64,000 bases of DNA from Citricoccus sp. (GCF_032154715.1 NZ_JALDXU010000006.1:2399-66398); one strand, 5' to 3'; positions 3,903 through 38,985 are shown, counted from the stretch's first letter. Made by a program: numbers and translations. The notes: generated from the letters alone by a model not told the origin.

Positions 3903-6394
3903 TGGCGCCGCCACGGAACCGCAAGCCCACCTTCCAGCTCCGGAACAGCGCCGGGCCGTGGGCAGCCGCCGGCGCCCCCGACTCTTCCGCCGACGGGTCC
4001 CCACCGCAGCCCACGAAGGCCGGGGCTTCTGCGCTCCAGAAGTACGGCGCCGTGGCCTGGTTCGGTGTGATCCTGCTGGCCCTGGCCATCATCCCGTCCC
4101 TGTACTCGGGGCTGCTCACCGGTTCCAACATGGACCCGACGGGTCGCCTCGATGCGGTGCCGGCCGCCGTCGTGAACCTGGACGAGCCGGCCGCATCCCA
4201 GGGCGAGACGATCCACTTAGGTGAGGACCTGGCCGAGGAGCTGGTGCACCCGGACGAGGACACGGACAACCTGGACTGGCAGCCGATGGACGACGCCGAG
4301 GCCCAGTCGGCCCTGGAGAACGGGGACGTGCTGGCCGTGCTGACCATCCCGGAGCAGTTCTCCACGCACGCGGCCGGGTTGTCCACGGGCGAGGCGGCGG
4401 ACGCGGAGCAGTCCACTCTGCGCATGCAGACCAATGACGGCGCGAACATCATCATGGGCACCATCGCGAAGACCATCGGCGAGACCGCGTCCAGCACGGT
4501 CGCCGAGGGCATCGGCGAGGAGTACGTGAAGAACGTGCTGCTGGGGTTCACCGAGGTGCATGACGGCATGCAGGAGGCCGCCGACGGCGCCGGGCAGGTG
4601 GCCGAGGGTGCGCAGGATGCCGCGAGCGGCGCCGGTGACCTGGTGGTCGGGATCGACCAGCTGGCGGACGGCTCCGTCACCGTGGACACCGGTGCCCAGC
4701 AGCTGGCCGAGGGAGCAGCCTCCGCCGACGCCGGCAGCCAGGAACTCGCCCACGGCGCCACGTCAGTGAACGACGGCGCGCAACAGCTCAGCTCGGGGCT
4801 GGGCCAGATGCGGTCCCAGACCGAGTCCCTGCCCAGCCAGACCCAGACCCTGGCGGACGGGGCCGGGAAGGTGGCGGCCGGCGTCGGGCAATTGGACCAG
4901 GGGGTCACCGCCCTCGAGGACACTGCGGGCAGCCTCTCGGGCGGAGCCGGGCAGTTCACGGCGGGAGTGGACGAGGCCGTGGCCGGTGCGCAGCAGCTGC
5001 GGGACAGCGCGGGCGCGGTGGTGACCGGCGTGCAGCAGGTCCAGGGTGATGCGGGCGCGTTGGAGGAGAGGATCGCCAACCTGCAGGCCGCCTACGGTGC
5101 GATGACCGACGAGCAGCGCCAGGCCGCCCTCGCCGAGCTGGCGGACGGTGCGGGGCAGGTGACGGCCGGCGCCGAGCAGGCCGCGGCAGGGGCGTCCACG
5201 GTGAACGAGGGGCTCGGCGGGATCGTCGGGGATTCCTCCTCCGGCTCGGGGCTGGCCGGTCTGCAGGCCCACGTGGACCAGCTCGGCTCCGCAGCGTCCA
5301 CGGCCGCCGCCACGGTCTCCGAGGTGGCGGACAACATCCACACCCTCTCGGACGGCGCCGACCAGGTGGCCGCGGGGGCCCAGGCCCTGGCGGACAGCTC
5401 CGGCACGCTGAGGGACGGGATCTCCACGGCGGCCACCGGCGCGCAGACCCTGGCCGATGGCACCTCGCAGCTGAGCGACGGCGCCGGCCAGCTGGCCGCC
5501 CGGATGCCGGCGCTGGCCTCCGGTGCGCAAGAGCTGGCCGCGGGCAGTTCCGAGCTGTCCTCCGGACTGGCCACTGCCGATGACGGTTCGCGCGAGCTTG
5601 CCTCCGGGCTGGGGGACCTGTCCGATGGCTCCGGCCAGCTGTTCACTTCCCTGCGGGACGGGACGGCGGACGTGCCGAGCTACACGGACCAGGACGCCTC
5701 GAGCATCGGCTCCGTGGCCGCCCTGCCGGTGAGCGCGGACCTGGAACGCACCAACGAGGTCCCCTCCTACGGCTACGGCCTGGCCCCGTACTTCATGGCC
5801 CTGGCCCTGTGGGTGGGCGCGCTGGGGTACTTCCTGATGCGCCCGGCCGTCCGCGAGACCATGATCGCCGAGCGCAAGCCGCTGTGGCGGGTGCTGCTGC
5901 GCTCGGCCGCTTTGCCCGCGCTGATGGGCGTGGCGCAGTCCCTGGTGATGGTCTCGGTGCTGGTCTTCGGCCTGGACCTGACGCCGGTGAACCCCTGGGG
6001 GCTGGCAGGCTTCGCCGTGCTGACCTCGGTGACCTTCATGGCCATCAACCAGGCGCTGATCGCCTTGCTGGGCCCGCCCGGGCGCTTCTTCGCCCTGATG
6101 CTGATCGTGCTGCAGCTCTCGGCCGCCGGCGGCACCTATCCCGTCCAGACCGCACCCGCGTTCTTCCAGGCGATCCACCCCTGGCTGCCGATGACCTACG
6201 CCGTGGAGTCCTTCCGTTCCCTCATTGCCGGTGGATCCATCGGTGTGGACCACGGGATCACGGTGATGCTGATCTGGATGGGCGTCGCGGTGGCGATGCT
6301 GGTGGTGGCCGTGGCGCTCCAGGGCATCAAGGCACGCCAGGCCACCTCCGGCACGGACCGGCCCGAGGTGCGGACCGCGGTGGCCACGGCGTAG
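3902..6394 (+). CDS. YhgE/Pip domain membrane protein (phage infection protein-like)
   Basis: There is an N-terminal TM helix, then a long Ala/Gly/Leu/Gln-rich repeat region (GAQQLA.GA-type), then a C-terminal ABC-2-like multi-TM block. The 1155-aa track ORF is trimmed to the ATG that overlaps the tetR stop. Confidence 0.8.
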   Translation: MAPPRNRKPTFQLRNSAGPWAAAGAPDSSADGSPPQPTKAGASALQKYGAVAWFGVILLALAIIPSLYSGLLTGSNMDPTGRLDAVPAAVVNLDEPAASQGETIHLGEDLAEELVHPDEDTDNLDWQPMDDAEAQSALENGDVLAVLTIPEQFSTHAAGLSTGEAADAEQSTLRMQTNDGANIIMGTIAKTIGETASSTVAEGIGEEYVKNVLLGFTEVHDGMQEAADGAGQVAEGAQDAASGAGDLVVGIDQLADGSVTVDTGAQQLAEGAASADAGSQELAHGATSVNDGAQQLSSGLGQMRSQTESLPSQTQTLADGAGKVAAGVGQLDQGVTALEDTAGSLSGGAGQFTAGVDEAVAGAQQLRDSAGAVVTGVQQVQGDAGALEERIANLQAAYGAMTDEQRQAALAELADGAGQVTAGAEQAAAGASTVNEGLGGIVGDSSSGSGLAGLQAHVDQLGSAASTAAATVSEVADNIHTLSDGADQVAAGAQALADSSGTLRDGISTAATGAQTLADGTSQLSDGAGQLAARMPALASGAQELAAGSSELSSGLATADDGSRELASGLGDLSDGSGQLFTSLRDGTADVPSYTDQDASSIGSVAALPVSADLERTNEVPSYGYGLAPYFMALALWVGALGYFLMRPAVRETMIAERKPLWRVLLRSAALPALMGVAQSLVMVSVLVFGLDLTPVNPWGLAGFAVLTSVTFMAINQALIALLGPPGRFFALMLIVLQLSAAGGTYPVQTAPAFFQAIHPWLPMTYAVESFRSLIAGGSIGVDHGITVMLIWMGVAVAMLVVAVALQGIKARQATSGTDRPEVRTAVATA

Positions 6395-6401
6395 CCCGCT
6401 C

Positions 6402-7721
6402 TCAGCGGTGCCCCGCCAGGGCCGCCGTGGAGAGCGCGGGCAGCCCCAGGTGCCCGCGCAGGGTGGTGGACTCGTACTCGTTGCGGAAGACCCCCCGCCG
6501 GCGCAGCTCCGGCACCACGTGGTCCACGAAGATCTCCGCCCCGGAGGGGAAGGTGTCCGGCATGATGTTGAAACCGTCCCCGGCCCCGGCCTGGAACCAC
6601 TCCGTGAGCGTGGCCGCGATCTGCTCCGGTGTGCCGATGGCGAGCCGGTGACCACTGCGGATCCGCTGGGTGAGCTGCCGAGGTGTCAGGTTCTCCCGGC
6701 GGGCGAGGTTGAGCTGTGCCTCGAGGAAGCCGTGGCTGGTCCTCACCGAGTCACTGGGTTTCGGGAACTTCTCCCAGGGCAGGGGCCGGTCCAGGTCGAG
6801 CTCCCGAGCGTCGATGCCGAGGCGCCCGGCGATCAGACCGAGTTCCTGGTCCAGGGACAGGTACGAGTCGAGCTCGTCCGCCTTGCGGTGAGCCTCCTCC
6901 TCGGTGGAGCCGATCACGGTGGAGAGACCCGGCATGATCCTCAGGGTCTCGGGGTCGCGCCCGAAGGCCGCGGCGCGCCGCTTCATGTCCCGGGCGAAGG
7001 CGATCCCGTCCTCGAGGGTCGTCTGGGTGGTGAAGATGGCGTCGGCGTGCTTCGCACCGAGATTCCGGCCGCCCTCGGACGCGCCGGCCTGGACGATCAC
7101 CGGCCGGCCCTGTGGCGTGTGCGGGAGCGTTCCGGCCCCCTCCACGGAGAAGAACTCCCCCCGGTGCCCCACCGGGTGCACCAGGTCCTGGGTGCCGTCC
7201 CCCCGTTCCACGGCCTCCGGATCCCAGCTCCCCCAGAGCCGGGTCACCACCTCGACGAACTCGTCGGCGCGGCGGTATCGATCGGAGTGGAACGCGGCCC
7301 CGTCCTGGCCGAAGTTCCGGGCGGCCGCATCACCGGCGGTGGTGACGGCGTTCCAGGCCGCCCGGCCGCCGCTGATGTGGTCCAGGGAGGAGATCCTGCG
7401 GGCCAGGTTGTAGGGGTGGTTGTAGGACGTGGAGGCGGTGGCGATCACCCCGATCCGTTCGGTCGCCGCGGCTACGGCCGTCAGCAGGACGATGGGGTCC
7501 AGCTTCCCAGTGGGTTGGGCGGGGTCCCCCTGGAAGGCGGGGCCGTCGGCCAGGAAGACCGCATCGAGGGCGCCTCGTTCGGAGATCTTGGCGATGGTGG
7601 TGAAGTACTCGACATCCGTGGTGGCGGAGGCGGGCACCTCCCCGAACTGGCGGGCGGCCGCGTGACCGCCCAGCCCCAGGACGTTCATGCCGATACTCAT
7701 CTGTTGTGGACGGTGGGTCAT
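6402..7721 (-). CDS. LLM-class flavin-dependent monooxygenase (NtaA/SnaA/DszA family)
   Basis: The 439-aa ORF has the family-typical N-terminus (MSIGMNVLGLGGH...AFLADGPAF) and is the last gene of the sulfur operon. Its ATG overlaps the upstream stop (ATGA). Confidence 0.85.
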   Translation of the reverse strand: MTHRPQQMSIGMNVLGLGGHAAARQFGEVPASATTDVEYFTTIAKISERGALDAVFLADGPAFQGDPAQPTGKLDPIVLLTAVAAATERIGVIATASTSYNHPYNLARRISSLDHISGGRAAWNAVTTAGDAAARNFGQDGAAFHSDRYRRADEFVEVVTRLWGSWDPEAVERGDGTQDLVHPVGHRGEFFSVEGAGTLPHTPQGRPVIVQAGASEGGRNLGAKHADAIFTTQTTLEDGIAFARDMKRRAAAFGRDPETLRIMPGLSTVIGSTEEEAHRKADELDSYLSLDQELGLIAGRLGIDARELDLDRPLPWEKFPKPSDSVRTSHGFLEAQLNLARRENLTPRQLTQRIRSGHRLAIGTPEQIAATLTEWFQAGAGDGFNIMPDTFPSGAEIFVDHVVPELRRRGVFRNEYESTTLRGHLGLPALSTAALAGHR

Positions 7722-9385
7722 CGGGCATCCTCTCGGGTGGGGTGGGGCACGGCGTCGATCAGCGCGCGCGTGTAGGACTGTGTTGACTCCTCGAAGACCT
7801 GGCGGACCGGACCGGACTCCACGAGCGCACCGCGCTCGAGCACCGTGACCGTGTCGGCCACCTGCCGGATCAGGCTCAGGTCGTGGGAGATCAACAGGAA
7901 CGTCAGGCCGTACTGCTCTCGGAGGTCGAAGAGCAGGTCCACGATCTGCGCCTGGACGGTGACGTCCAGCGCGGAGGTCGGCTCGTCCAGCACGAGGACC
8001 GAGGGCGAGAGGACGAGGGCCCGGGAGATGGCCACCCGCTGGCGTTGGCCGCCGGACAGCTGGCTGGCCTTGCGCCGCCAGAGCTCGCGACCGATGCCCA
8101 CACGGTCGAGCATTCTCCGGGCCTCCTCCAGCGCCGACCGGCGATCGAGGCCGCGGATCCGTAGGGGCTCGGCCACCAGCCCCTCCACGGGGATACGGGG
8201 GTTCAGGGCGGAGAGCGGGTTCTGGTAGACGAGTTGCAGCCGTTCCGGGGAGGCGTTCACCACCGGAGGCGTCCTCTCCAGCTGCTCGCCGAACACCTCG
8301 ACCGTCCCCTGGTCGAACCCGGTCAGGCCGGCGACGATGCGAGCGATCGTGGTCTTGCCCGATCCTGATTCGCCGACCAGTGCGTGGATCTCCCCCGCCG
8401 CCACTTCGAAGCCGACGCTGTCCACGGCCCGGACGCCGGGCACGAAGGACCTGGACAGGCCGCGGACGCTGATCGCCCGCGCCGCGGGATCACGGCGGGC
8501 GGCGGACTCCTGCAGCCGGACCGCGTACTTGTCCGGGTTGAGGGCGGGCACGTCGGAGAACAGCTGGCGGGTGTACTCGGAGACAGGACGGTGCAGGACC
8601 TCATCCACCCGGCCCTGCTCAACAACGCGTCCGTGCCGGAGCACCACCACGCTGTCCGCCCGCTCCGCCGCCAGAGACAGGTCATGGGTCACGAGGATCA
8701 GTGTCAGGGAGAACTCGCGTTGCAGGGAGGTGAGCAGGTCCAGGATTCTCTTCTGCACCGTGACGTCCAGCGCGGAGGTCGGCTCGTCTGCGATCAGGAC
8801 CTGGGGCCGGCCTGCGAGGGCGCTGGCGATCAGCACCCGCTGGAGCTGACCGCCGGACAGCTCGTGCGGATAGGACCGGTAGCGGTGCGCGGCGTCGAGG
8901 ATGCCCACGTGCTCCAGCAGTTCCAGGGCCGCGTCGGCGGCCTCGGCGGAGCCCACGCCGCGGGCCTGTGCCACGGACTCCGCGATCTGTTGGCCCACGG
9001 ACATCAGGGGGTCCAGGGAACCCAGGGGATCCTGGGGGACGTAGCCGAGAACGGTACCCCGCAGCGGCCGCCACTGCCGGTCCGTCAGGGAGGTCACCTC
9101 CCGGCCGTTCAGCGTCAGCCGCCCGGCCTCGATCCTGCCGTTGTCCGGCAGCAACCCCGCCAGCGCGGAGACCACGGAGCTTTTGCCGGAGCCGGACTCG
9201 CCCACCAGGGCGACGGTCTCTCCGCGGGGGACCGCGAAGGACACGTCCTCCACGCCGGTGGTGCGTCCCTGGCGCGAGACGTACGTCAGATGCAGGCCGC
9301 TGACCTCGGCGGCGATCGGCCCCGAGGCCGCCGCTTCGTCAAGCCCCTCCACTGGGGAACTGGGCCGGGTGGTGGTGAGCGTCAT
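7718..9385 (-). CDS. ABC transporter ATP-binding protein, two fused cassettes (DppD/DppF-like)
   Basis: Two Walker A motifs (GESGSGKSS, GESGSGKTT) and two signature motifs (LSGGQLQR, LSGGQRQR) are present. The start is set at the ATG at 9385, which overlaps the upstream stop. Confidence 0.9.
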   Translation of the reverse strand: MTLTTTRPSSPVEGLDEAAASGPIAAEVSGLHLTYVSRQGRTTGVEDVSFAVPRGETVALVGESGSGKSSVVSALAGLLPDNGRIEAGRLTLNGREVTSLTDRQWRPLRGTVLGYVPQDPLGSLDPLMSVGQQIAESVAQARGVGSAEAADAALELLEHVGILDAAHRYRSYPHELSGGQLQRVLIASALAGRPQVLIADEPTSALDVTVQKRILDLLTSLQREFSLTLILVTHDLSLAAERADSVVVLRHGRVVEQGRVDEVLHRPVSEYTRQLFSDVPALNPDKYAVRLQESAARRDPAARAISVRGLSRSFVPGVRAVDSVGFEVAAGEIHALVGESGSGKTTIARIVAGLTGFDQGTVEVFGEQLERTPPVVNASPERLQLVYQNPLSALNPRIPVEGLVAEPLRIRGLDRRSALEEARRMLDRVGIGRELWRRKASQLSGGQRQRVAISRALVLSPSVLVLDEPTSALDVTVQAQIVDLLFDLREQYGLTFLLISHDLSLIRQVADTVTVLERGALVESGPVRQVFEESTQSYTRALIDAVPHPTREDAR

Positions 9386-10311
9386 CAGGAGAATTCCTTT
9401 CTGAGCCGCGCCGCGAGGCGCTGCAGGTGGGACAGCGAGAGGACGGTCAGGACGATGGCGAGCCCGGGACCGATCAGCAGCCAGGGGGCGGACATCACGT
9501 ACTGCCTCCCCTCGGAGACGAGCAGGCCCCACTCCGGTTGCGGCGGCACCGCTCCGAAGCCGAGGAAGCTCAGGGCGGAGATCCAGATGATGGCCCCGCC
9601 GAATTGCAGAGGGATCAGCGTGAGGACGGGCCCCAGGGAGTTCGGCAGGATGTGATGGATGAGTGTGCGGGTGCGGCCCGAGCCCTGGTGCTGCGCGGCC
9701 TCCACGAACGCCGAGTTCCGGATCCGCAGGACCTCCGAGCGGGTGATGCGGGCGAAGTTCGCGATCGAGGAGATTCCCACGGCAATGGCCGCGTTGATCG
9801 CCCCGAAGCCGAGCGCCACGATGATCACCATGGACAGCAGGAGTCCCGGAACGGACAGCAACACGTCCACGATCCGGCTCACCAGGGCGTCCACCCAGCC
9901 ACCGAGGTACCCGGCCACGAGACCGAGGAGGATCCCCCCGGCCAGGCCCACGGAGACGGCCACGGCCGACGCCGAGAACGTGGTGGTGGTCCCGAAGACC
10001 AGCCGGGAGGCCAGGTCCCGGCCGAGGTAGTCGGTACCGAGCGGATGGGCGGCCCCCGGCGCCTCGAGGATCTGGCCCGCCCCCGCGTCCAGGGGATCGT
10101 AGGCGGTCAGCAGCGCGGGTGCGGCGACGGCGAGCAGCAACGCCAGGACGAAGAGCCCGGCGAGCCAGTCAGCGGTCCGCATGCTGCGCACCACCGCCCG
10201 GACCCGCCGTCGGCCGTCCGGTCCCGGGGCCGGACGGGGGCCACCGTCCGGTGACGGGGCTCCACCGTCCTGCGGAGCGAGGGCTGCGGGGGTCGGCAGG
10301 GTGCTGGTCAT
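9385..10311 (-). CDS. ABC transporter permease (DppC/OppC-like)
   Basis: This is a multi-TM permease. The start is MTSTLPT at 10311, overlapping the upstream stop by 4 nt. The rest of the track ORF is a spurious N-terminal extension. Confidence 0.85.
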   Translation of the reverse strand: MTSTLPTPAALAPQDGGAPSPDGGPRPAPGPDGRRRVRAVVRSMRTADWLAGLFVLALLLAVAAPALLTAYDPLDAGAGQILEAPGAAHPLGTDYLGRDLASRLVFGTTTTFSASAVAVSVGLAGGILLGLVAGYLGGWVDALVSRIVDVLLSVPGLLLSMVIIVALGFGAINAAIAVGISSIANFARITRSEVLRIRNSAFVEAAQHQGSGRTRTLIHHILPNSLGPVLTLIPLQFGGAIIWISALSFLGFGAVPPQPEWGLLVSEGRQYVMSAPWLLIGPGLAIVLTVLSLSHLQRLAARLRKEFS

Positions 10312-11300
10312 GATGATCCTTTCCGCACACGGAGCCGCCGCCCCCGCGCCGGATGCTGGGCCACCCGGGACTCCGTGATCACGATGCGGGGGTCGATCAA
10401 GGGGTAGATGAGGTCGGCGATCAGGTTGACCACCGAGTACAACGCGGCCACGAACAGCACCACGGCCAGGACCACGGGTGAGTCCTGTGAGCGCACGGCC
10501 TGTTCCGTCACCAGGCCGAGCCCCGCCCGGTTGAAGACGGACTCCACAATCACCGAGCCGGCGATCAGGTCCGCGATCGTGAGGGCGAGCAGGGTCAGCG
10601 CCGGGATGGAGCCGTTGCGCAGTAGGTGCCGGCCGATGATCTGCGCGCGTGACAGGCCCTTGGCCTTGAGCACCTTGACGAAAGGCTGGTCGTTCGCCTC
10701 GCCGAGTCCCTGGATCAGCACCTGCGTGACGGAGGGGCTCACCGCGATCCCGAGGGTCAACGCCGGCAGGATCAGCCCCGCGGGACCGTCGGTATCCAGG
10801 GCGGAGACCCAACCAAGCTGGTACGAGAAGATCTGCAGCAGGAAGAGCCCCACGAGGAAGCTCGGGGTGGAGAGCGCCAGCGAGGGGTAGACCGTGAGGA
10901 CGGCCCGCACGGCCGCGGAGCGGCTGAACACGGCGAACACGGCCACCAGCGCGGCGATGAGAACGGCAATCCCGAAGGCCACGAGCGCCAGCAGCAGCGT
11001 TGAACCGATGCCCTGGGCGAAGAGGTCGCCCACGGCGCGGCCGGTGCCCAGCGAATAGCCGAGGTCCCCCTGGAAGAGCCGTCCGAGGGTGATGAAGAAC
11101 TGCTCCACGGCGGACTGGTCCAGGTTGTAGTACTCGATGATGACCTGGGCTTGTTCCGGTGGAACCGGGTTCTGCGGGTTCTCCAGGCGGTTGCGGACCG
11201 GGTCCCCGGGCAGCGCGAAGAGCACCCAGTAGGTCAGCAGGTAGACCAGGGCCACCACCAGCAGTGCGTGCCCGGCTCGCCCGGCCACATACCGCCTCAT
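10308..11300 (-). CDS. ABC transporter permease (DppB/OppB-like)
   Basis: The family-typical N-terminus MRRYVAGRAGHALLVVALV begins at the ATG at 11300. The alternative GTG at 11426 would abut the SBP stop. Confidence 0.8.
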   Translation of the reverse strand: MRRYVAGRAGHALLVVALVYLLTYWVLFALPGDPVRNRLENPQNPVPPEQAQVIIEYYNLDQSAVEQFFITLGRLFQGDLGYSLGTGRAVGDLFAQGIGSTLLLALVAFGIAVLIAALVAVFAVFSRSAAVRAVLTVYPSLALSTPSFLVGLFLLQIFSYQLGWVSALDTDGPAGLILPALTLGIAVSPSVTQVLIQGLGEANDQPFVKVLKAKGLSRAQIIGRHLLRNGSIPALTLLALTIADLIAGSVIVESVFNRAGLGLVTEQAVRSQDSPVVLAVVLFVAALYSVVNLIADLIYPLIDPRIVITESRVAQHPARGRRLRVRKGSS

Positions 11301-11422
11301 TCCCTGCCCGACGCGCGGTCGCCCCGGTCGCTGCGGTGAGGCGGCGGTTCCGGGCGTCCTGGCATCATTCCCCGGGGAGACGGTGCTTTCCCGCGCGGCC
11401 TGGTGCGTCCGGACCCCGGCCG

Positions 11423-13066
11423 TCACTTCTCCTCCGTCCAGGCCCCGTAGAACAGCGGGCGGGCCTCGGCGCTGAAACCGAAGTCGTGGACGGTGGGCTG
11501 CACCGCGAAGATCTGGGAGTCCTTGATCAGCGGCACGGTGTAGGCCTCATCGATCACGTGGTCTTGGAGTTCTCCGAGGATCTCCTCGCGTGCGGCGGCG
11601 TCGGTCTCCGTGGCCTGGGCCTCGAAGAGCTCCTCCAGTCTCGCGTCCCCGGAGGGCAGCGCGAATCCGTTGGTCCCCTCCGGGTCCCAGGACGTCCTCA
11701 GGGTCGCCCACGGTGCCGGGTAGGGCCATCCGGAGCGCGTGGCCGCCACGTCCTCCGCGGCGTAGGCGGCCGAGACCTGCGAGTAGTCCGCATCCCTCAG
11801 CTCGAGGTTGATGCCCAGCTCCTTCAGTTGGGCCTGCACCAACTGGTACAGCGGCCGGGCGGTGCTGTCATAGACGTCGATCACCGTCACCAGATGCAGC
11901 TGCTGGCCGTCCTTGACCCGGTACCCCTCGGCGTCACGCTCGGTATAGCCGGCCTCGTCCAGGAGGGCGTTGGCGTGGTCCGGATCGTACTGAAGTTTCT
12001 CGCTCTGGTCCTTGAACCCGAAGGCGTCCTGGGTGACGATGCTCTGGGCCACGTCCCAGTTCTCCGTGTAGAGGTCCTCGATGATGCGCTCGCGGTCGAT
12101 CCCGTTCTGGATCGCCTGCCGCACCCTGACGTCCTGCAGGGCGGGGATCTGCTGCTTGAGGACCCACTGGTTGGTGGCCCCGAGTCCCTGCGCGGAGATG
12201 ATCTGGGCCCCCTGCTCCGCGAGCTGGGTCTCGTCACTGGGCTGGATGTAGCGGATGGCGTCCGCCTGCCCCGAACGGAACGTGCCGATGCGCACGGTGT
12301 CGTCCGTGACGGCGCGGACCACCACCTTGTCCAGGTAGGCCTCCCCCTCTTGGCCGACGCCCTCGGGCGCCCAGTCATAGCCCTCGCGCTGGGCGAAGAC
12401 GATCTCCTCGCCGTACGTCTCGCTCTCCACCACAAAGGGGCCGCTGCCGATGAGCCCCGTGATCTGCTGCTGCTCCTCCAGCGAGGCCTCGATGGTGGCA
12501 TCAGCGACCAGGGAGGCGGACCAGCCCGAGAGGACGTCGAGGAACTCTGCGTACGGGTGCTCCAGGACCACCGTCACGGTGTCCCCCTCGGCCGTCACTG
12601 ATTCGACCGCCGGGAACTGGTTGTTCGCTTGAATGCCCTTGGCCTCGTCCCCTTCCGCCTGCCACTGGAGGTTGCGCTGCACGCTCGCCGCGTCCAGAGG
12701 CGTCCCGTCCGAGTAGGTCACGCCGGGACGGATGGTGAACTCGTAGGTCAGGCCGTCCTCGGAGACCTCCCAGGACTCGGCGATGTAGGGGGCCAGCTCC
12801 CCGGTCTCCGGGTCCTTCCAGATGAGCCGGTCGGTGACGTTCTCCACGTAGGCGCTGTCCTGCCAGGTCCCGGCGCCCTGCAGCTGGGTGGACCGGGACG
12901 CCTCGGCGTCGAGGTAGGTCAGGGTTCCTCCCTGCTTCTCCACAGGCCCGGTGGAGGCCGTCTGGCCGGCCGGGCTGCAGGCGGCCAAGGTCAGGGCCAG
13001 GGGTGTCACGGCCAGCCACAGCGCGGTCCGGCGAGTTCTTCTGGCGGGATGGTTCTGGATGGTCAT
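11423..13066 (-). CDS. ABC transporter substrate-binding lipoprotein, family 5 (peptide/nickel type)
   Basis: There is a signal peptide with the lipobox LTLAAC. The 547-aa size fits SBP family 5. The start overlaps the upstream stop (ATGA). Confidence 0.85.
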   Translation of the reverse strand: MTIQNHPARRTRRTALWLAVTPLALTLAACSPAGQTASTGPVEKQGGTLTYLDAEASRSTQLQGAGTWQDSAYVENVTDRLIWKDPETGELAPYIAESWEVSEDGLTYEFTIRPGVTYSDGTPLDAASVQRNLQWQAEGDEAKGIQANNQFPAVESVTAEGDTVTVVLEHPYAEFLDVLSGWSASLVADATIEASLEEQQQITGLIGSGPFVVESETYGEEIVFAQREGYDWAPEGVGQEGEAYLDKVVVRAVTDDTVRIGTFRSGQADAIRYIQPSDETQLAEQGAQIISAQGLGATNQWVLKQQIPALQDVRVRQAIQNGIDRERIIEDLYTENWDVAQSIVTQDAFGFKDQSEKLQYDPDHANALLDEAGYTERDAEGYRVKDGQQLHLVTVIDVYDSTARPLYQLVQAQLKELGINLELRDADYSQVSAAYAAEDVAATRSGWPYPAPWATLRTSWDPEGTNGFALPSGDARLEELFEAQATETDAAAREEILGELQDHVIDEAYTVPLIKDSQIFAVQPTVHDFGFSAEARPLFYGAWTEEK

Positions 13067-13842
13067 GACTGGTTCTCCCCGGTGATGGTGGGTTTGCGTG
13101 CTTCGATGAGGTGCCGTGTCGAATGGGTGATGAACGGCCCGTGCGTCTGGATGCGGTCATGCAGGTCCCGGAGCCGGCCGCGGTATCCCGCCACGGTGAA
13201 TCCGGGCACCCACCAGATGACCTTGCGCAGGAGGTAGACCACGGCGGCCACGTCATGGATCTCGATCCGCAATCTCGCTGACTCGAGGTTGACGATGTTC
13301 AGTCCCGCGGCCCGTGCGGCAGCAGTCTCCTCGTCGGGGTGCCGCGCCTGGCGGGCTACGGGCAGGGGGCCGAGGAAGAACTCGATGAGTTCGAACGCGC
13401 TGGCCGGGCCCACGTGCTGCGCCAGGTAGGTGCCCTCCGGCGTCAGGACCCGGGCGATCTCGTCCCACCAGATGGTCGCGGGGTGCCGGCTGGAGACCAG
13501 GTCGAAGGCGGCGTCGGCGAAGGGCAACGGCGGTTCGTCCGGGTCTGCCACCACCACCACGCCACGGGGGTGGAGCCGTGCGCTGGCCCGCGCGAGGTTC
13601 GGCGCCCAGGACTCCGTGGCCACGGCGGTCGGCGGGAACGCCTCAGCCTGGGCCAGGACCTCCCCGCCGCCGGTCTGGATGTCCAGAGAGGCGGAGGCGT
13701 CCCGGAGCCGGCGGGCCAGGCGGCCGGCGTACCCCCACGGGGGGCGTTCCTCGGTGGCCCGGCCCTCCAGCCAGGAGAAGTTCCACCCGGTCACGTCGGC
13801 GGAGGCGCCGGCCTCGAGGAGGTCCTCGAAGGTGTCAGTCAT
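13063..13842 (-). CDS. class I SAM-dependent methyltransferase
   Basis: A motif-I-like LDIQTGGGE and the later VSSRHP...LTPEGTYL segment match small SAM methyltransferases. The start MTDTFEDL at 13842 overlaps the upstream gene by 8 nt. Confidence 0.75.
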   Translation of the reverse strand: MTDTFEDLLEAGASADVTGWNFSWLEGRATEERPPWGYAGRLARRLRDASASLDIQTGGGEVLAQAEAFPPTAVATESWAPNLARASARLHPRGVVVVADPDEPPLPFADAAFDLVSSRHPATIWWDEIARVLTPEGTYLAQHVGPASAFELIEFFLGPLPVARQARHPDEETAAARAAGLNIVNLESARLRIEIHDVAAVVYLLRKVIWWVPGFTVAGYRGRLRDLHDRIQTHGPFITHSTRHLIEARKPTITGENQS

Positions 13843-15106
13843 GGTCCGCGTCCTCCTGTTCGGCCTGCCCGTCCCGGCCCGTCGCCGGACCCTGACCACC
13901 CCAGAGAGCGAACTCGCCGGTCAGCAGATACTCGCCGACCGCCCGCGCCCGGTATTTCGCCGGGTTGTGGCTGGCGATGGTTCGGGCATTGCGCCAGTGC
14001 CGGTCCAAGCCCCGGACGGTGCTCGTGGCCGAGGCCCCGCCGACCTCGAAGATCTCGGTGGTGACCCGCTGCACCAGCTCGAGCACCACCAGTTGCGCCT
14101 GGAACACGTCGCGAGCCAGCCGCTGGGATTCCTTGGTCAGAAGATCCGTACTGGCCCCCTCCAGGGTGCCGTCAGCGGCCTTCCGCGCATAGGCGTCCAG
14201 CGCCGCCGACTGACTCAGCACGATCAACCGGGCCGCATGCGCCTTGGCGGCCACCTCGCCGACCACGGTCTGGACCACGTCCTGATCCCGGGGCGCCAGC
14301 TCACCCCGGTGGGCAAACGTCCGGCGGCGAGGGCGGACGTAGTCCACCGCGTCCTCCACCGCCGCCTGGGCCACGCCCGCGGCCACCAGGAGCAGGATCA
14401 TCTGGAAGAGTCCGACCACGAACCCGGAATGCGGATCATCGGCGTCGAAGGCCCGGACGTCCCGGGGGTCCACGGGCACCTCGGAGAGGGTGAGGCCCCC
14501 GCTCGCGGTCAGCTGCTGGCCGAATCCGTCCCAGTCGTCCGCCACCCGCACCCCGTGGTGGGAGGCGTCCACCAGTACCGAATGCCGGGTGTCTCCGTGG
14601 ACGGCGGAGAGGGAGATCCAGTCCGCGTAGATGCTGCCGGTGGTGTAGTACTTCGTCCCCGTGACGGTCCACTGCCCGCCGCGCTGCTCCAGCCGGGTGG
14701 TGATCTCGGATAGCTCCTGGCGCTCCGACGCGGCATTGCCGATCAGCGCCCCCGCGCCGATCCGGCGCAGCCACTGATCGCGGTGATCCCCGGGGGGTCT
14801 CAACAACAGCCGCTCCAGGAAGGCGATGTGCCCGCGGAAGAGGTGGGCCACGTTCGAATCGGCCGCGGCCAGGTCCACCAACAGTGCGGCGAAGTCGCTC
14901 AACCCCACGCCCCGGCCCCCGAACTCCGGTGGAACCCGCAAGGCGGTGAAGCCGCTGACCTTGAGCTCCTCCACCACCAGGAACGGCAGATCTCGAGTGC
15001 GCTCACGCTCTACAGCACCCGCACGGATGCGGGAGAAGAGCGGTGCGAACTCCGCCCGGAGCGCTTCGGTGCTCGTGCGCGCCGGGGTCGGTGAAACAGT
15101 GGTCAT
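13835..15106 (-). CDS. acyl-CoA dehydrogenase-fold sulfur-acquisition oxidoreductase (SfnB/DszC-like)
   Basis: This is an ACAD-like protein of about 420 aa. The start is set at the ATG at 15106 (GAGAGGG RBS), because the longer track ORF would start inside the riboswitch. Confidence 0.8.
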   Translation of the reverse strand: MTTVSPTPARTSTEALRAEFAPLFSRIRAGAVERERTRDLPFLVVEELKVSGFTALRVPPEFGGRGVGLSDFAALLVDLAAADSNVAHLFRGHIAFLERLLLRPPGDHRDQWLRRIGAGALIGNAASERQELSEITTRLEQRGGQWTVTGTKYYTTGSIYADWISLSAVHGDTRHSVLVDASHHGVRVADDWDGFGQQLTASGGLTLSEVPVDPRDVRAFDADDPHSGFVVGLFQMILLLVAAGVAQAAVEDAVDYVRPRRRTFAHRGELAPRDQDVVQTVVGEVAAKAHAARLIVLSQSAALDAYARKAADGTLEGASTDLLTKESQRLARDVFQAQLVVLELVQRVTTEIFEVGGASATSTVRGLDRHWRNARTIASHNPAKYRARAVGEYLLTGEFALWGGQGPATGRDGQAEQEDADHD

Positions 15107-15157
15107 GGCTGCCCTCTCGGATGGCCGCGCCGGGCAGCGATCATCCAGGGATGTCTT

Positions 15158-15280
15158 CAGCCGGCTGCACTTGCCGGTCACCGCTGCGGGCCGGCCGAAT
15201 CATCACCTGGTGCACCCCACTACAGCGAGAGGGTTGCAGTCCGGCCAGCCAGGGCTTCCCACCGGAACTCGTGATTCTGG
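15158..15280 (-). promoter_or_regulatory. SAM riboswitch, SAM-IV-like (5' leader of the sulfur operon)
   Basis: The minus-strand RNA reads GAAUCACGAGUUCCGGUGGGAAGCCCUGGCUGGCCGGACUGCAACCCUCUCGCUGUAGUGGGGUGCACCAGGUGAUGAUUC...CCGGCAAGUGCAGCCGG. This aligns block by block with the actinobacterial SAM-IV aptamer as I remember it: P1 with GAG, AAGCCC.GGCU, GCAACCCUC, GUGGGGUGC.CC.GGUGAUGA and a downstream GGCAAG. Confidence 0.7.
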
Positions 15281-15448
15281 GAACGAGGCTACGAACTCAC
15301 GGTCCTGTCCGCATCACCTGATTAATCTGACGACTTCTACGCTCCGGTGTGCGCGAAGACCGCCGAGACCACGCCATAGGTCGTCATGGGAGGTCATCTC
15401 CTCATGACCTGGCCTGCCACGTCGTCCGAAACCGGCCAGGCTGAGCCC

Positions 15449-15805
15449 TCAGCCCTCGGCCTCCTGGCGCGAGGCCCGCGCCAGCCGTTCGACGAGCTCG
15501 TCTGGGATCGGCTTGCGGGGCGAGAAGGTGATGCCGGTCTTGGTCGCCTTGAGGCCGGCGGCCGCGATGTCATCGGCATGTGCGGAGAGGGCGCCCGGCA
15601 GGAGATACAGCCCGCCCTGCTTGCTGAACGCCGCATAGCTCGCCACGACGGTGCCACCGATGCTGAACCCCGGCATGTTGTAGGCCACCATCTCCTCCGC
15701 CTCAGGCAGGGTGCGGGCCAGGATCGCGCGCAGGCGCTGCAACTCCGGCCGGAACGGCTCGGGCGCCGCTGCGATGTAGGCGTCGTGGTCCGCGATCGTC
15801 GTCAT
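15449..15805 (-). CDS. DUF1801 (YdhG-like) domain protein
   Basis: The 118-aa product MTTIADHDAYIAAAPEPFRPEL...AYNMPGF is typical of DUF1801. The remainder of the 517-aa track ORF is antisense to the AlkD-like gene and was discarded. Confidence 0.7.
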   Translation of the reverse strand: MTTIADHDAYIAAAPEPFRPELQRLRAILARTLPEAEEMVAYNMPGFSIGGTVVASYAAFSKQGGLYLLPGALSAHADDIAAAGLKATKTGITFSPRKPIPDELVERLARASRQEAEG

Positions 15806-15964
15806 GGGCGTGCCTCGCTTCTGGTGTTGTCGGTGGTCCAGATTCTCGTTCCCGGGATCCCGAGCCGTCCATGGTCCTTGGGCCGAAGGACCGCCCGGGC
15901 CACACCTGACTGGCCGCTCCGGATCGGTCCCCTGCGCCGGACCCTGCCCGGCGATAATGATCGC

Positions 15965-17089
15965 ATGCCTTCCGCTGACGAGCTCCTGGGTGCACGCGCC
16001 GCCACCGTACTGACCCGTTCCATCCAGCAGGTCGTGCCGGGGACGGACCTGCATTCGTTGCCCCGAGCCGCGGAGTCGCTCGACGGCCTCGCCCTCCGCG
16101 AGCGCGCGGACCTCCTGCGGGAGGCCCTTCTGGCCGACCTCCCGGGCGACTACCAGTCGCTCGCCCACGTCATCCGTCAGGCGCGAAACAGCACACCGGA
16201 TTTCGCCGGCTGGCTCATCTGGCCGGTCACGGGTGCGGTCCCCGCCCGGGCCGTCCAGGAGAACACCGCAGCAGCGTTTACGGATGCCATGGCCCTCCTG
16301 GCAGAACTCACGGGCCGGCTCACCTCGGAGTTCTCCCTCCGCACCCTCCTGCGTCACGACCTGGACCGCGGACTGGCGATCATCGCCGGTTGGACGGATT
16401 CCGCGGACGAGCACATCAGACGCCTGGCCAGTGAGGGCACCCGCCCCTACCTCCCCTGGGCGGTGCGCGTCCCGGCCATCACCGCTCATCCCGGCGTGAC
16501 CGTGCCCCTCCTCGAGACTCTGTACCGGGATCCCAGTGAGTACGTCCGGCGTTCGGTGTCCAACCACCTCAACGACCTCAGTCGGGATGCCCCGGACCTC
16601 GTCGTCTCGACGGCACAGCGGTGGCTGGCGAACCCTGGGCCGCAGACGTCTGCCCTCGTCCGCCACGGTCTGCGCACCCTCCTCAAGAACGGCCACCCGG
16701 GTGCACTGGAACTGCTCGGTTTCGGGCCCGTGTGCGTCGACATCGACGGGCCGCATCTCACCGCGGACCGGGTGCCGTGGGGCGGAGAGGTCCGCTTCAC
16801 CGCGGTGTTGCGCAACGTCGGTCCGGAGCCCGCTCGTCTCGCCATCGACTACGTGGTCCACCATCGCAAGGCCAACAGCACCCTCAGCACCAAGGTCTTC
16901 AAGCTGACCACCCGGACCCTCCAGCCCGGAGAGGAGATGGCCGTCACTCGGACGCACTCCTTCCGGGCGATCACCACCCGCCGCTACCACCCCGGCGGCC
17001 ACGCGGTCGCCCTGCAGGTCAACGGGATCTCCACCGTTCCGGTGCCCTTCGAACTGTTACCCGCGGATCAGGCCCTCAGCCTCTCTTGA
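15965..17089 (+). CDS. DNA alkylation repair protein (AlkC/AlkD-like HEAT-repeat)
   Basis: Starting at MPSADELLG, the sequence includes ...EHIRRLASEGTRPYLPW...DPSEYVRRSVSNHLNDLSRD, which matches this family. The start is the ATG at 15965. Confidence 0.7.
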   Translation: MPSADELLGARAATVLTRSIQQVVPGTDLHSLPRAAESLDGLALRERADLLREALLADLPGDYQSLAHVIRQARNSTPDFAGWLIWPVTGAVPARAVQENTAAAFTDAMALLAELTGRLTSEFSLRTLLRHDLDRGLAIIAGWTDSADEHIRRLASEGTRPYLPWAVRVPAITAHPGVTVPLLETLYRDPSEYVRRSVSNHLNDLSRDAPDLVVSTAQRWLANPGPQTSALVRHGLRTLLKNGHPGALELLGFGPVCVDIDGPHLTADRVPWGGEVRFTAVLRNVGPEPARLAIDYVVHHRKANSTLSTKVFKLTTRTLQPGEEMAVTRTHSFRAITTRRYHPGGHAVALQVNGISTVPVPFELLPADQALSLS

Positions 17090-17729
17090 GGACCCGGATC
17101 GCCAGCTGGACCCGGTTCTCCACGCCCAGCTTGTCAAAGATCCGCCCGATGTGGGTCTTCACGGTCGGTACGGAGAGGAACAGCTCCCCGGCGACCTCCG
17201 TGTTCGTCAGCCCGTCAGCCACCCTGACGGCCACGTCCCGTTCGCGCGGGCTGAGGCCCTCCAATGGGTCCGTCACGGGCCGACGTCGGCCCTGCCGGGT
17301 CGCGAACGTCACGAGCCGGGCGAGGACGGTCGGGGAGACGGCCATCGTGCCGTCCGCCGCCCGGCGGACCGCAGTCACCAGGTCTTCGGGTGGCGTGTCT
17401 TTGAGCAGGAACCCGACGGCCCCGGCTTCCAGGGCGTCGAGGATGAAATCATCGGTGTCGTAGGCCGTCAGGACGAGGACCTGCGGCGGGTCGACGGCGG
17501 TCCGCAACCGCCGGGTCGCCTCGATGCCATCGCACCGCGGCATCCGGATGTCCATGAGGACCACGTCCGCCCGCAGGTTCGCGGCCAGCACCACGGCCTC
17601 TTCGCCGTCGGCGGCCTCACCGACGATCGTCACCTCGGGGTCACCCTCGAGGATCAACCGCAGCCCGGCGCGCATCAGGGACTCGTCATCGGCAATCAGG
17701 ACGCGGATCGGTGAACTCACCTCTGCCAT
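17076..17729 (-). CDS. LuxR/NarL-family response regulator
   Basis: There is a receiver domain (VLIADDE...DVVLMDIRMP) and a C-terminal LuxR HTH (LSPRERDVAVRVADGLTNTEVAGELFLSVPTVKTHIGRI). Confidence 0.9.
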   Translation of the reverse strand: MAEVSSPIRVLIADDESLMRAGLRLILEGDPEVTIVGEAADGEEAVVLAANLRADVVLMDIRMPRCDGIEATRRLRTAVDPPQVLVLTAYDTDDFILDALEAGAVGFLLKDTPPEDLVTAVRRAADGTMAVSPTVLARLVTFATRQGRRRPVTDPLEGLSPRERDVAVRVADGLTNTEVAGELFLSVPTVKTHIGRIFDKLGVENRVQLAIRVLKRG

Positions 17730-19030
17730 GGCAACCAGGCCTCCACGGTGAAACTACCCGCCGCCGCCTGGACTCGGACACTGCCGTCCAGCAGTTCGAA
17801 GCGCTCGCGCAGTCCGATCAGCCCATAGCCGCCGCTGCCATCGGAGACGGCGTGGGCGGGGACGGGGTTGCTGGCGATCAGGGTGATGCCTTCGCCGCGG
17901 ACCCCGGTGAGCGTGAGCCGGACGGGACCGTGTGGCGCGTGCGTCCGTGCGTTGGTCAGACATTCCTGACCGAACCGGAAGACGGCGCGGGAGACCACCT
18001 CCGGAAGTGCCTCGCCGTCATCGGCTTCCAGCAGCCCGGAGGTGGTGAACTCGACCGGAGTGCCGAGTTCACGCGTCGTGGCCACGAGGCCCTCAAGGGC
18101 GGCGAGGGTCGCGTCCGGGGAGGCGGGGTGGTCCTCCTCCCGGAGCACGCTCAGCACGGTCCGTAGTTCCCGTGACGCCGTCCTCGCCGTCTCCCGCACC
18201 AATCCAGCCGTGCGGTGCAGGGTCTCGGCGTCCAGGTCCGTGCGGTATTCCAGGGCGCCGGCATGCAGGGAGATCAGGCTGAGGCGGTGCGAGAGGCTGT
18301 CGTGCATCTCCCGGGCGATCCGGGTGCGCTCGGCGGCGCGCACCTGCTCGGCGTGGGCCTCTCGCTCACGGCGGGCCGTGACCGCCTCCTGGCGCAGGGA
18401 GCGGATCAGTGCCCGCCGGCCGCGACGCACCGATCCCACCAACCAGCAGACACCGCACACCGCCACGGCGAGGAGCAGCACCATCCACACTGAGGCGGAC
18501 GGATCAGGCTCCGCGACGGAGGCGTTGAGGACCGCTGCCGCGAGGAACACGCCGGCGGCCACGCCGAACCACCAGGGCCGGCGTCGGGCGGCGAAGGAGA
18601 CCAGGACGATGACCTGGGCTGGTGCCGCCAAACTGGACACGGTGGCGGTCGCGATCACGGCTACACCGGCCGCGAGCGCCCAGCCGCTGTCCACGCCTGG
18701 GCGTGCCGTGGTTGCGGCAGAACCGGCGGCCGGGGCGCCCTGGGCCTCCGGGCCGGCGTCGAACCCTGCCGCTGGGGCAACCGGGGCCGAGAACAACGCA
18801 TCGGCCCAGGGCCGGAGCGCGAAGGGCAGGATGGCCACGGCCAGCAATCCGAAGAGGAGGTCGCCGAACATCACCAGGGAGAGGCGGACGGCCTCAAGGG
18901 AGGACAGGGTCCCCGGGTCCTCTGGCAGCATGCTGCCGCGGACCACGGCGAACACGAGGAGCCCCGCCACCAGGGCCCCCAGCGTGGTCCCGGCGGCGTA
19001 CCACCCCGGTCGGCGAATCCATCTCAGCAC
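17717..19030 (-). CDS. sensor histidine kinase (HisKA_3 type)
   Basis: The N-terminus is multi-TM. The H-box reads EMHDSLSHRLSLI and a C-terminal HATPase region follows. The gene overlaps the response regulator start by 13 nt. Confidence 0.85.
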   Translation of the reverse strand: MLRWIRRPGWYAAGTTLGALVAGLLVFAVVRGSMLPEDPGTLSSLEAVRLSLVMFGDLLFGLLAVAILPFALRPWADALFSAPVAPAAGFDAGPEAQGAPAAGSAATTARPGVDSGWALAAGVAVIATATVSSLAAPAQVIVLVSFAARRRPWWFGVAAGVFLAAAVLNASVAEPDPSASVWMVLLLAVAVCGVCWLVGSVRRGRRALIRSLRQEAVTARREREAHAEQVRAAERTRIAREMHDSLSHRLSLISLHAGALEYRTDLDAETLHRTAGLVRETARTASRELRTVLSVLREEDHPASPDATLAALEGLVATTRELGTPVEFTTSGLLEADDGEALPEVVSRAVFRFGQECLTNARTHAPHGPVRLTLTGVRGEGITLIASNPVPAHAVSDGSGGYGLIGLRERFELLDGSVRVQAAAGSFTVEAWLPWQR

Positions 19031-33669: not shown

Positions 33670-33770
33670 AAGAAGTCACGCGGACATCCCTTCGCTAGGT
33701 CGAACTAGATCAGGTTCCACGGGTGTGATCTCAGCGCCGGACAGCGCACCCCGTGTCCAGGAGTCAGTGT
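33670..33770 (-). promoter_or_regulatory. TPP (THI-box) riboswitch upstream of thiE
   Basis: The minus-strand RNA reads GGACACGGGGUGCGCUGUCCGGCGCUGAGAUCACACCCGUGGAACCUGAUCUAGUUCGACCUAGCGAAGGGAUGUCC. It contains the canonical GGGGUGC, CUGAGA, ACCUGAUC and GCGAAGGGA blocks, closed by a P1 helix. Confidence 0.85.
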
Positions 33771-38884: not shown

Positions 38885-38985
38885 AAGAAGTCACGCGGAC
38901 ATCCCTTCGCTAGTACGAGCTAGATCAGGTTCCACGGGTTTGATCTCAGCGCCAGCCGACGCACCCCGTGTCCACGAGCCAGTGT
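38885..38985 (-). promoter_or_regulatory. TPP (THI-box) riboswitch upstream of thiD/tenA-MFS-thiM
   Basis: This is a near-identical paralogue of the thiE riboswitch, with the same GGGGUGC, CUGAGA, ACCUGAUC and GCGAAGGGAUGUCC blocks. Confidence 0.85.

Follow-up and report, generated by a model that had tools for sequence, protein, structure and literature searches.

What does a SAM-IV-like riboswitch do in front of genes for organic sulfur compounds, and how might it control them? A minus-strand leader in 64 000 nt of DNA from a Citricoccus species (Micrococcaceae), hereafter the window, raises this question. Taking the evidence together, we put at roughly 0.7 the probability that the 5′ end of a seven-gene mRNA for organosulfur import and desulfurisation carries a genuine SAM-IV riboswitch, that the operon is off at high SAM and that the output is likely exerted on translation initiation.

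The SAM-IV aptamer

The window was scanned with the covariance models of Rfam 15 using cmscan. This returned an untruncated match to RF00634 (SAM-IV) at 15162-15276 (-) that covers all 116 model positions (1-116; score 85.5 bits, gathering score 38 bits, E = 7.3e-14), and the same aptamer was recovered by a whole-genome SAM-IV search. The initial annotation had called the leader SAM-IV-like on the basis of a series of minus-strand sequence blocks, each of which is found in 15107-15300, and had named an Rfam covariance-model search as the check. With a positive, full-length hit, the leader RNA is a full SAM-IV riboswitch, beyond merely SAM-IV-like, and belongs to a class whose founding description is reportedly that of Weinberg et al. 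2008. Its parts are as follows.

15162..15276 (-): SAM-IV aptamer, from the full RF00634 model and covariation in 31 related aptamers
15276-15273 with 15201-15198 (-): P1, from the SAM-IV model alignment
15195-15173 (-): P5, from the SAM-IV model alignment
15206..15253 (-): PK-1, CCUGG (15253-15249) with CCAGG (15210-15206), 100 % paired in the 31 aptamers
15164..15226 (-): PK-2, GCUGU of the P3 loop (15226-15222) with GCAGC of the 3′ tail (15168-15164), 85 % paired in the alignment

In the model alignment, P1, P2a/P2b, P3 and P5 are present in family order. An alignment was also made of this aptamer and 30 more found in the host and related genomes (alignment A1, n = 31). When pairs are counted over the SAM-IV fold with its two pseudoknots, 97 % of cells are paired, compared with only 30-47 % in slid controls, and 18 of the 35 pairs display changes on both sides. 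P1, P2a, P3 and P5 are 97-100 % paired with compensatory changes. PK-1 joins the P2b loop to the strand 3′ of P3; its central pair is C-G in the metY type (16 sequences) and U-A in the scavenging type (15 sequences). PK-2 joins the P3 loop to the tail after P5, and four of its five pairs change on both sides across leader types (variants CCGC/GCGG, CCGU/ACGG and CUGU/ACAG). In two of the related genomes, G010 and G013, the tail reads ACAGC, and a U.G pair becomes U-A.

The ligand pocket can be compared with the cryo-EM structure of a SAM-IV example from Mycobacterium sp., in which residues 2-4, 7-8, 63-65 and 77 lie within 5 Å of SAM (PMC6890682). U3, C4, G7, A8, U63, G64, C65 and A77 are invariant in our alignment and present here. 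Residue 2 is an A paired with U78 where the consensus has G-C, a compensatory change in alignment A1. This pair corresponds to A6-U88, beside the sulfonium in the SAM-I structure, and the likeness to SAM-I argues for SAM as the ligand.

Gene content of the operon and the SAM-IV regulon

The aptamer lies on the operon strand and ends 55 nt before the start codon (ATG at 15106, -). The downstream genes had been read as an acyl-CoA-dehydrogenase (ACAD)-type protein, a methyltransferase, a peptide-type ABC importer and a monooxygenase, and Pfam and NCBIfam bear this out for seven genes.

13835..15106 (-): gene 1, SfnB/DszC-like acyl-CoA-dehydrogenase-fold flavin monooxygenase, 423 aa (TIGR04022)
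13063..13842 (-): gene 2, class I methyltransferase-fold protein (Pfam Methyltransf_11, E = 3e-8)
7718..13066 (-): genes 3-6, Opp/Nik-type ABC importer (Pfam and NCBIfam)
11423-13066 (-): gene 3, family-5 substrate-binding protein (SBP_bac_5), closest to TIGR04028
10308-11426 (-): gene 4, permease (BPD_transp_1)
9385-10311 (-): gene 5, permease (BPD_transp_1)
7718 to about 9388-9532, start uncertain (-): gene 6, fused double ATPase (ABC_tran twice)
6402..7721 (-): gene 7, NtaA/DmoA-family FMN-dependent monooxygenase, last of the operon (TIGR03860)

The name SfnB-like, given earlier to gene 1, has to be widened to SfnB/DszC-like, as the score of the protein with the SfnB equivalog model TIGR04022 (247.3 bits) is below the cut-off of 430.9; its best solved relatives are TdsC/DszC and methanesulfinate monooxygenase. 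Gene 3 also scores below the cut-off of its best-matching model, TIGR04028 (392 bits; cut-off 468.5), which is well above NikA (170 bits). Gene 7 exceeds the cut-off of TIGR03860 (465.1 bits; cut-off 279.7), and its best solved relative is YtnJ/MoxC of Bacillus subtilis (296 bits), followed by EDTA and NTA monooxygenases and DszA. For gene 2, NCBIfam gave no match and the solved structures nothing informative. The end of the operon is placed at 6402, since a convergent YhgE/Pip gene stops at 6394, 8 nt from the gene 7 stop.

The combination of a DszC-like S-oxygenase, a DszA/YtnJ-like C-S-cleaving enzyme and a peptide-type importer suggests that the substrate is a thioether- or sulfone-type amino-acid or peptide-like sulfur compound. 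The operon probably imports such an organic sulfur compound, then oxidises it and cleaves its C-S bond. One gene fits poorly: a SAM-dependent methyltransferase in an operon that is on only at SAM scarcity is hard to explain and counts against our model.

The surroundings of the operon contain further genes and regulatory RNAs. Upstream on the same strand, 17717-19030 encodes a HisKA_3 histidine kinase and 17076-17729 a NarL/LuxR-type response regulator (both -), followed by a DUF1801-containing frame that ends at 15449. Elsewhere in the window, a near-identical pair of TPP riboswitches was detected at 33670-33763 (-) and 38885-38978 (-) (66.4 and 71.9 bits; gathering score 54.3), both with the same P3-region deletion relative to the model.

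The host genome (3.47 Mb) carries four SAM-IV copies. These precede metY-metX, an SfnB-SfnB-NtaA/DmoA (LLM) cluster, the present operon and an HsaB/HpaC-type flavin reductase, which two-component monooxygenases require as a partner. Counting SAM-IV in 17 Citricoccus genomes (this one and 16 others) gave 59 matches, distributed as follows.

17 copies: before metY
17 copies: before the SfnB-SfnB-monooxygenase cluster
16 copies: before the flavin reductase
4 copies: before this operon (own genome, G002, G010 and G013)
3 copies: second SAM-IV inside the cluster, before a monooxygenase and a binding protein
2 copies: before an MFS transporter

In Citricoccus, most SAM-IV copies precede sulfur-scavenging genes, not genes for methionine synthesis, with flavin-monooxygenase, flavin-reductase or transporter genes behind 42 of the 59. 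The contrast that had been drawn between this operon and the usual methionine, cysteine and SAM genes is real when set against the textbook regulon, but within Citricoccus the association is the rule. The combination of this particular operon and its switch occurs in only four of the 17 genomes. The second switch within the cluster (L044 in G004, L054 in G009 and L067 in G014) follows the first by ~3.1 kb and lies directly before an NtaA/DmoA monooxygenase and a family-5 binding protein.

In a tree of the aptamers, the scavenging and metY types are separated with support of 96/89. All scavenging aptamers in alignment A1 have AAUC/GAUU as P1 and all metY-type aptamers GGUC/GACC, and PK-1 is CCUGG/CCAGG here versus CCCGG/CCGGG in the metY type. 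The present aptamer falls within the scavenging clade, adjoining the SfnB-cluster copies, which suggests that the switch was duplicated within the lineage. Judging from these sequence differences, the two gene groups may respond at different SAM thresholds, owing either to the weaker P1 or to the A-U pair at 2/78 that resembles SAM-I.

Beyond the genus, SAM-IV in other Micrococcales is found with an MFS transporter and a luciferase-like monooxygenase, with an NMT1-type (sulfonate-like) binding protein and an ATPase, with a class-V aminotransferase, and with a rhodanese and a MetY-like gene. We built a SAM-IV model from the present aptamers and searched 80 genome and 80 metagenome loci that encode SfnB-like relatives. 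Nine matches were obtained at eight of the 80 genome loci, of which G010 alone represents a true orthologue, and SAM-IV was seen adjoining SfnB-like genes in Arthrobacter, Crystallibacter and Aquipuribacter; none was found in the 80 metagenome loci. The nearest orthologous cluster outside the genus, that of Zafaria (70 % identity), has another gene order and no methyltransferase, and its search for SAM-IV was negative, including with the search filters off. Separately, in three related genera (L243 in G020, L245 in G021 and L248 in G024), genes of the VIT1 family (iron/manganese transporter-like) lie behind lower-scoring SAM-IV matches, which at 54-72 bits still exceed the gathering score; no sulfur link is evident.

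Expression platform and mode of control

The leader of this operon (C type) was compared with those of the SfnB cluster (B type) and the flavin reductase (D type). Its features outside the aptamer are the following.

15286..15291 (-): candidate -10 hexamer TAGCCT, a TAnnnT at constant spacing in related leaders; tentative
15107..15161 (-): expression platform, the 55 nt between aptamer and ATG, 94 % identical in four orthologous leaders
15139..15155 (-): hairpin H0 (GACAUC..GAUGAUC), six pairs kept in four of four orthologues
15132..15138 (-): anti-Shine-Dalgarno (anti-SD) strand GCUGCCC, pairing with 15114-15108 in the minimum-free-energy fold
15108..15118 (-): Shine-Dalgarno (SD) GAGAGGG (15118-15112), overlapping GGGCAGC (15114-15108), the 3′ strand of the SD helix; from sequence and predicted fold
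15124..15165 (-): candidate alternative helix P6, GCCGGCUG (15165-15158) with CGGC-G-CGGC (15132-15124), 31 of 32 cells paired

The candidate -10 lies 9 nt upstream of the first base of the aptamer, a spacing that predicts a transcript start 1-4 nt before P1. A TAnnnT hexamer occurs at an equal distance from the junction of CAG and AAUCAC in leaders of the C, B and D types from many Citricoccus genomes. Its fixed position in three scavenging leader types would place the aptamer at the extreme 5′ end of the transcript, as in Corynebacterium glutamicum, where the mapped transcription start is 2 nt upstream of SAM-IV (PMC3890552). The assignment is tentative because a sigma-70 consensus scan gave no match. 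Approximately 30 nt upstream of the candidate -10 is an 8-bp palindrome, GATTAATC (15320-15327, -), repeated ATGAC/GTCAT words are present upstream of C- and B-type promoters (here 15360-15400, -; loci L037-L074) and GTCAC-N5-TTCAC upstream of D-type promoters. The palindrome, the repeated words and the D-type motif may be sites for a protein regulator working beside the riboswitch.

At the other end of the leader, the SD is judged good, and the initial annotation had proposed that it is buried by a helix GCUGCCC/GGGCAGC. Such a helix exists at that place. When the platform is folded by itself, this helix is the minimum-free-energy structure in the present leader and in that of G002, and GGGCAGC has a predicted unpaired probability of ~0.00 in this genome. 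However, the helix is no stabler than dinucleotide shuffles (z = -0.55 over 61 nt, -1.46 over 45 nt) and is only partly kept in the orthologues: it is not the minimum-free-energy structure in the diverged G010 and G013, and across the four leaders 26 of 28 cells are paired, with two wobble changes, two broken cells and no compensatory change. A five-pair core of the helix is kept in all four. In H0, the loop changes from CCUG to UGAAG in G013 with the stem intact.

The candidate helix P6 shares 2 nt with the PK-2 tail and 1 nt with the anti-SD strand. Among the four orthologues, G010 carries one compensatory change in this helix (G-C to U-A) and G013 a single mismatch. The predicted energies of the SD helix and P6 vary widely among orthologues (-21.6 versus -14.6 kcal/mol here; -9.4 versus -15.3 kcal/mol in G010). 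The C-type leaders are only four in number (own genome, G002, G010 and G013) and closely related at 94 % identity, so that covariation in the platform is without statistical power.

From these elements a relay can be proposed in which SAM locks PK-2, P6 opens and the SD helix closes; it is the best available model, not a finding. When sulfur is plentiful, SAM would bind the aptamer and lock P1, PK-1 and PK-2. The PK-2 tail would then be held in the aptamer, leaving GCUGCCC free to pair with GGGCAGC and cover the SD and spacer, and the operon would be off. In the SAM-free state, the tail and its 3′ extension would pair with the platform as P6, which is incompatible with the SD helix. The operon would be expressed as SAM, the cell's sulfur-status signal, falls. 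It forms one branch of a SAM-IV regulon together with metY-metX, the SfnB-SfnB-monooxygenase cluster and the flavin reductase that such monooxygenases require. We infer the OFF response at high SAM from the metY-metX copy in the same regulon and from physiology; the scavenging copies share their aptamer architecture with that copy. The output step is probably translation initiation.

Pairing of the tail extension with its cognate platform is predicted at -18.2 kcal/mol in the B type and -17.5 kcal/mol in the D type, and cross-type controls are weaker (-9.9 to -16.5 kcal/mol for B-type tails and -11.4 to -13.8 kcal/mol for D-type tails). For the C type, the difference between cognate (-13.8 kcal/mol) and cross-type pairing (-11.8 to -13.1 kcal/mol) is not significant. 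Two-state folding, with the aptamer blocked, the tail free or the 3′ half free, revealed no consistent change in SD or AUG accessibility in this leader and the other three of the genome, and ribosome-binding-site accessibility likewise showed no consistent change in 25 B-, C- and D-type leaders. A SAM-dependent alternative pairing for the present leader, sought by folding and pairing comparisons, was not demonstrated. The minimum-free-energy fold of the whole leader (-85.5 kcal/mol) is no better than shuffled sequence (z = -0.61), and its long-range helices, including that of CCCUCUC with the SD, are therefore not evidence.

Two other pairings were considered and rejected. As read from the sequence, the first five bases of the anti-SD strand are also complementary to the PK-2 tail GCAGC; the predicted energies do not support direct competition of this tail with GGGCAGC for GCUGC, and the ACAGC tail of G010 and G013 weakens it. 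A long-range helix had been proposed for D-type leaders, for which the RNAalifold consensus gave a local tail hairpin and a local SD hairpin instead, indicating that platform logic differs among leader types.

The platform also contains a 13-codon frame (15103-15144, -; MIAARRGHPRGQP) with its AUG at 15144, within hairpin H0, and a UGA that shares bases with the main AUG (AUGA). All four orthologous leaders retain the frame, with two silent and three replacement changes, and it has neither an SD nor Cys or Met codons; an analogous short frame is not conserved in D-type leaders. We consider that the frame is probably due to chance.

The predicted presence of the SD helix whether the aptamer tail is free or not, together with the failure to demonstrate a SAM-linked alternative pairing, would also suit the main rival, an aptamer that senses SAM but acts on transcription, through Rho-dependent termination or a changed mRNA stability within the leader or the first part of the coding region. 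In that case the SD helix would be constitutive, or act only indirectly by uncoupling translation. The classical metY leader is likewise predicted to be always sequestered, suggesting that simple SD masking may not be the whole mechanism in the genus. Nevertheless, we regard a transcriptional output as rather unlikely: no intrinsic terminator was found in the leader (the sole terminator-like site in 4000-17000 is at 16210-16195), the 55 nt from aptamer to ATG leave little space for Rho loading upstream of the start, and the SD-proximal complementarity core is kept in all orthologues.

The preferred reading, SAM-dependent repression of translation, must also be weighed against a change of function in the scavenging-type aptamers, which would now bind another ligand (e.g. 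S-adenosylhomocysteine) or act as ON switches. Their separate, well-supported clade (96/89) and the difference at the pocket-adjacent residues 2/78 point in this direction, as does the exact complementarity of CCCUCUC in the aptamer to the SD, since the two pair in the unconstrained fold and SAM binding would free the SD. That fold is at the shuffled level, however, and pocket and core positions other than these do not vary. Scavenging at sulfur plenty, the outcome of an ON switch, would be physiologically senseless, and A2-U78, being the SAM-I arrangement, favours SAM; we consider such a divergence very improbable. Even more improbable is that the aptamer is a non-functional relic carried in with an acquired operon, as could be imagined from the accessory distribution of the operon and from the Zafaria cluster without SAM-IV. 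Against decay stand the full-length, high-scoring match with all invariant positions intact, the near-identity of the aptamer in four genomes in which the downstream protein has diverged to 85 % identity, and the improved pairing that results from the PK-2 change in G010 and G013.

Known systems and biological meaning

As an RNA, the riboswitch is an ordinary member of its family, one that any annotation using Rfam would pick up. It shares P1, P2a/P2b, P3, P5, PK-1, PK-2, the conserved core and the position in an actinobacterial 5′ leader with the SAM-IV family (RF00634, PMC6890682), from which it differs in its sub-clade P1 and PK-1 sequences. SAM-IV has been described before metY (O-acetylhomoserine sulfhydrylase) in Mycobacterium avium (MAV_4315; PMC3774663), before a cysteine desulfurase gene in Streptomyces lividans and at cg1478 in C. 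glutamicum (PMC3890552). With the metY-type switches of M. avium and of its own genome, the present riboswitch has in common the class and the presumed logic by which high SAM stops sulfur amino-acid supply, whereas the genes behind it are non-biosynthetic: an importer, two flavin monooxygenases and a methyltransferase.

In C. glutamicum, sulfonate utilisation (ssu/seu) is controlled by McbR, SsuR and CysR, with the SAM-cycle metabolite S-adenosylhomocysteine as effector. There too, a methionine/SAM-cycle metabolite signals to both methionine synthesis and organosulfur scavenging in an actinobacterium, but the regulators are protein repressors and activators at promoters, where in Citricoccus an RNA aptamer in each leader would serve. 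The ytmI operon of B. subtilis, which contains YtnJ/MoxC, functions in S-alkyl-cysteine salvage and is controlled by protein regulators. Like the present operon, it joins an ABC importer to flavin monooxygenases of the NtaA family and other kinds for sulfur salvage, and it is on at sulfur limitation, as the present operon would be. Its importer is of another family, and it is not known to have a DszC/SfnB-like partner, a methyltransferase or a riboswitch. The gene association described here is logical and lineage-wide, and it is absent from the open literature searched, in which no paper linked SAM-IV to sulfonate, monooxygenase or flavin-reductase genes.

A broader evolutionary reading is attractive, although we hold it tentatively, at a little under even odds. 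A dedicated paralogous SAM-IV clade, marked by P1 AAUC/GAUU and hence by a restored SAM-I-like A-U pair beside the sulfonium, would now run the response to sulfur starvation in Citricoccus and certain other Micrococcales, with separate copies switching importers, SfnB/DszC-like and DszA/YtnJ-like oxygenases and a shared flavin reductase. SAM would thereby replace the protein regulators of other bacteria (CysB/Cbl, SsuR and McbR), and different SAM thresholds of the two clades may grade scavenging against methionine synthesis. The presence of two aptamer clades in one cell offers a natural test of P1 composition against riboswitch sensitivity.

For the operon itself, the presence of the switch predicts induction at low SAM and sulfur limitation, and the substrate of this uncharacterised import-plus-desulfurisation system could be sought in that state. 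With 42 of 59 copies before scavenging genes, the flavin reductase included, SAM is a plausible master signal of sulfur status, read by RNA in place of protein regulators. If confirmed, this would mean that SAM riboswitches reach past the supply of methionine and SAM and govern organosulfur scavenging in this lineage.
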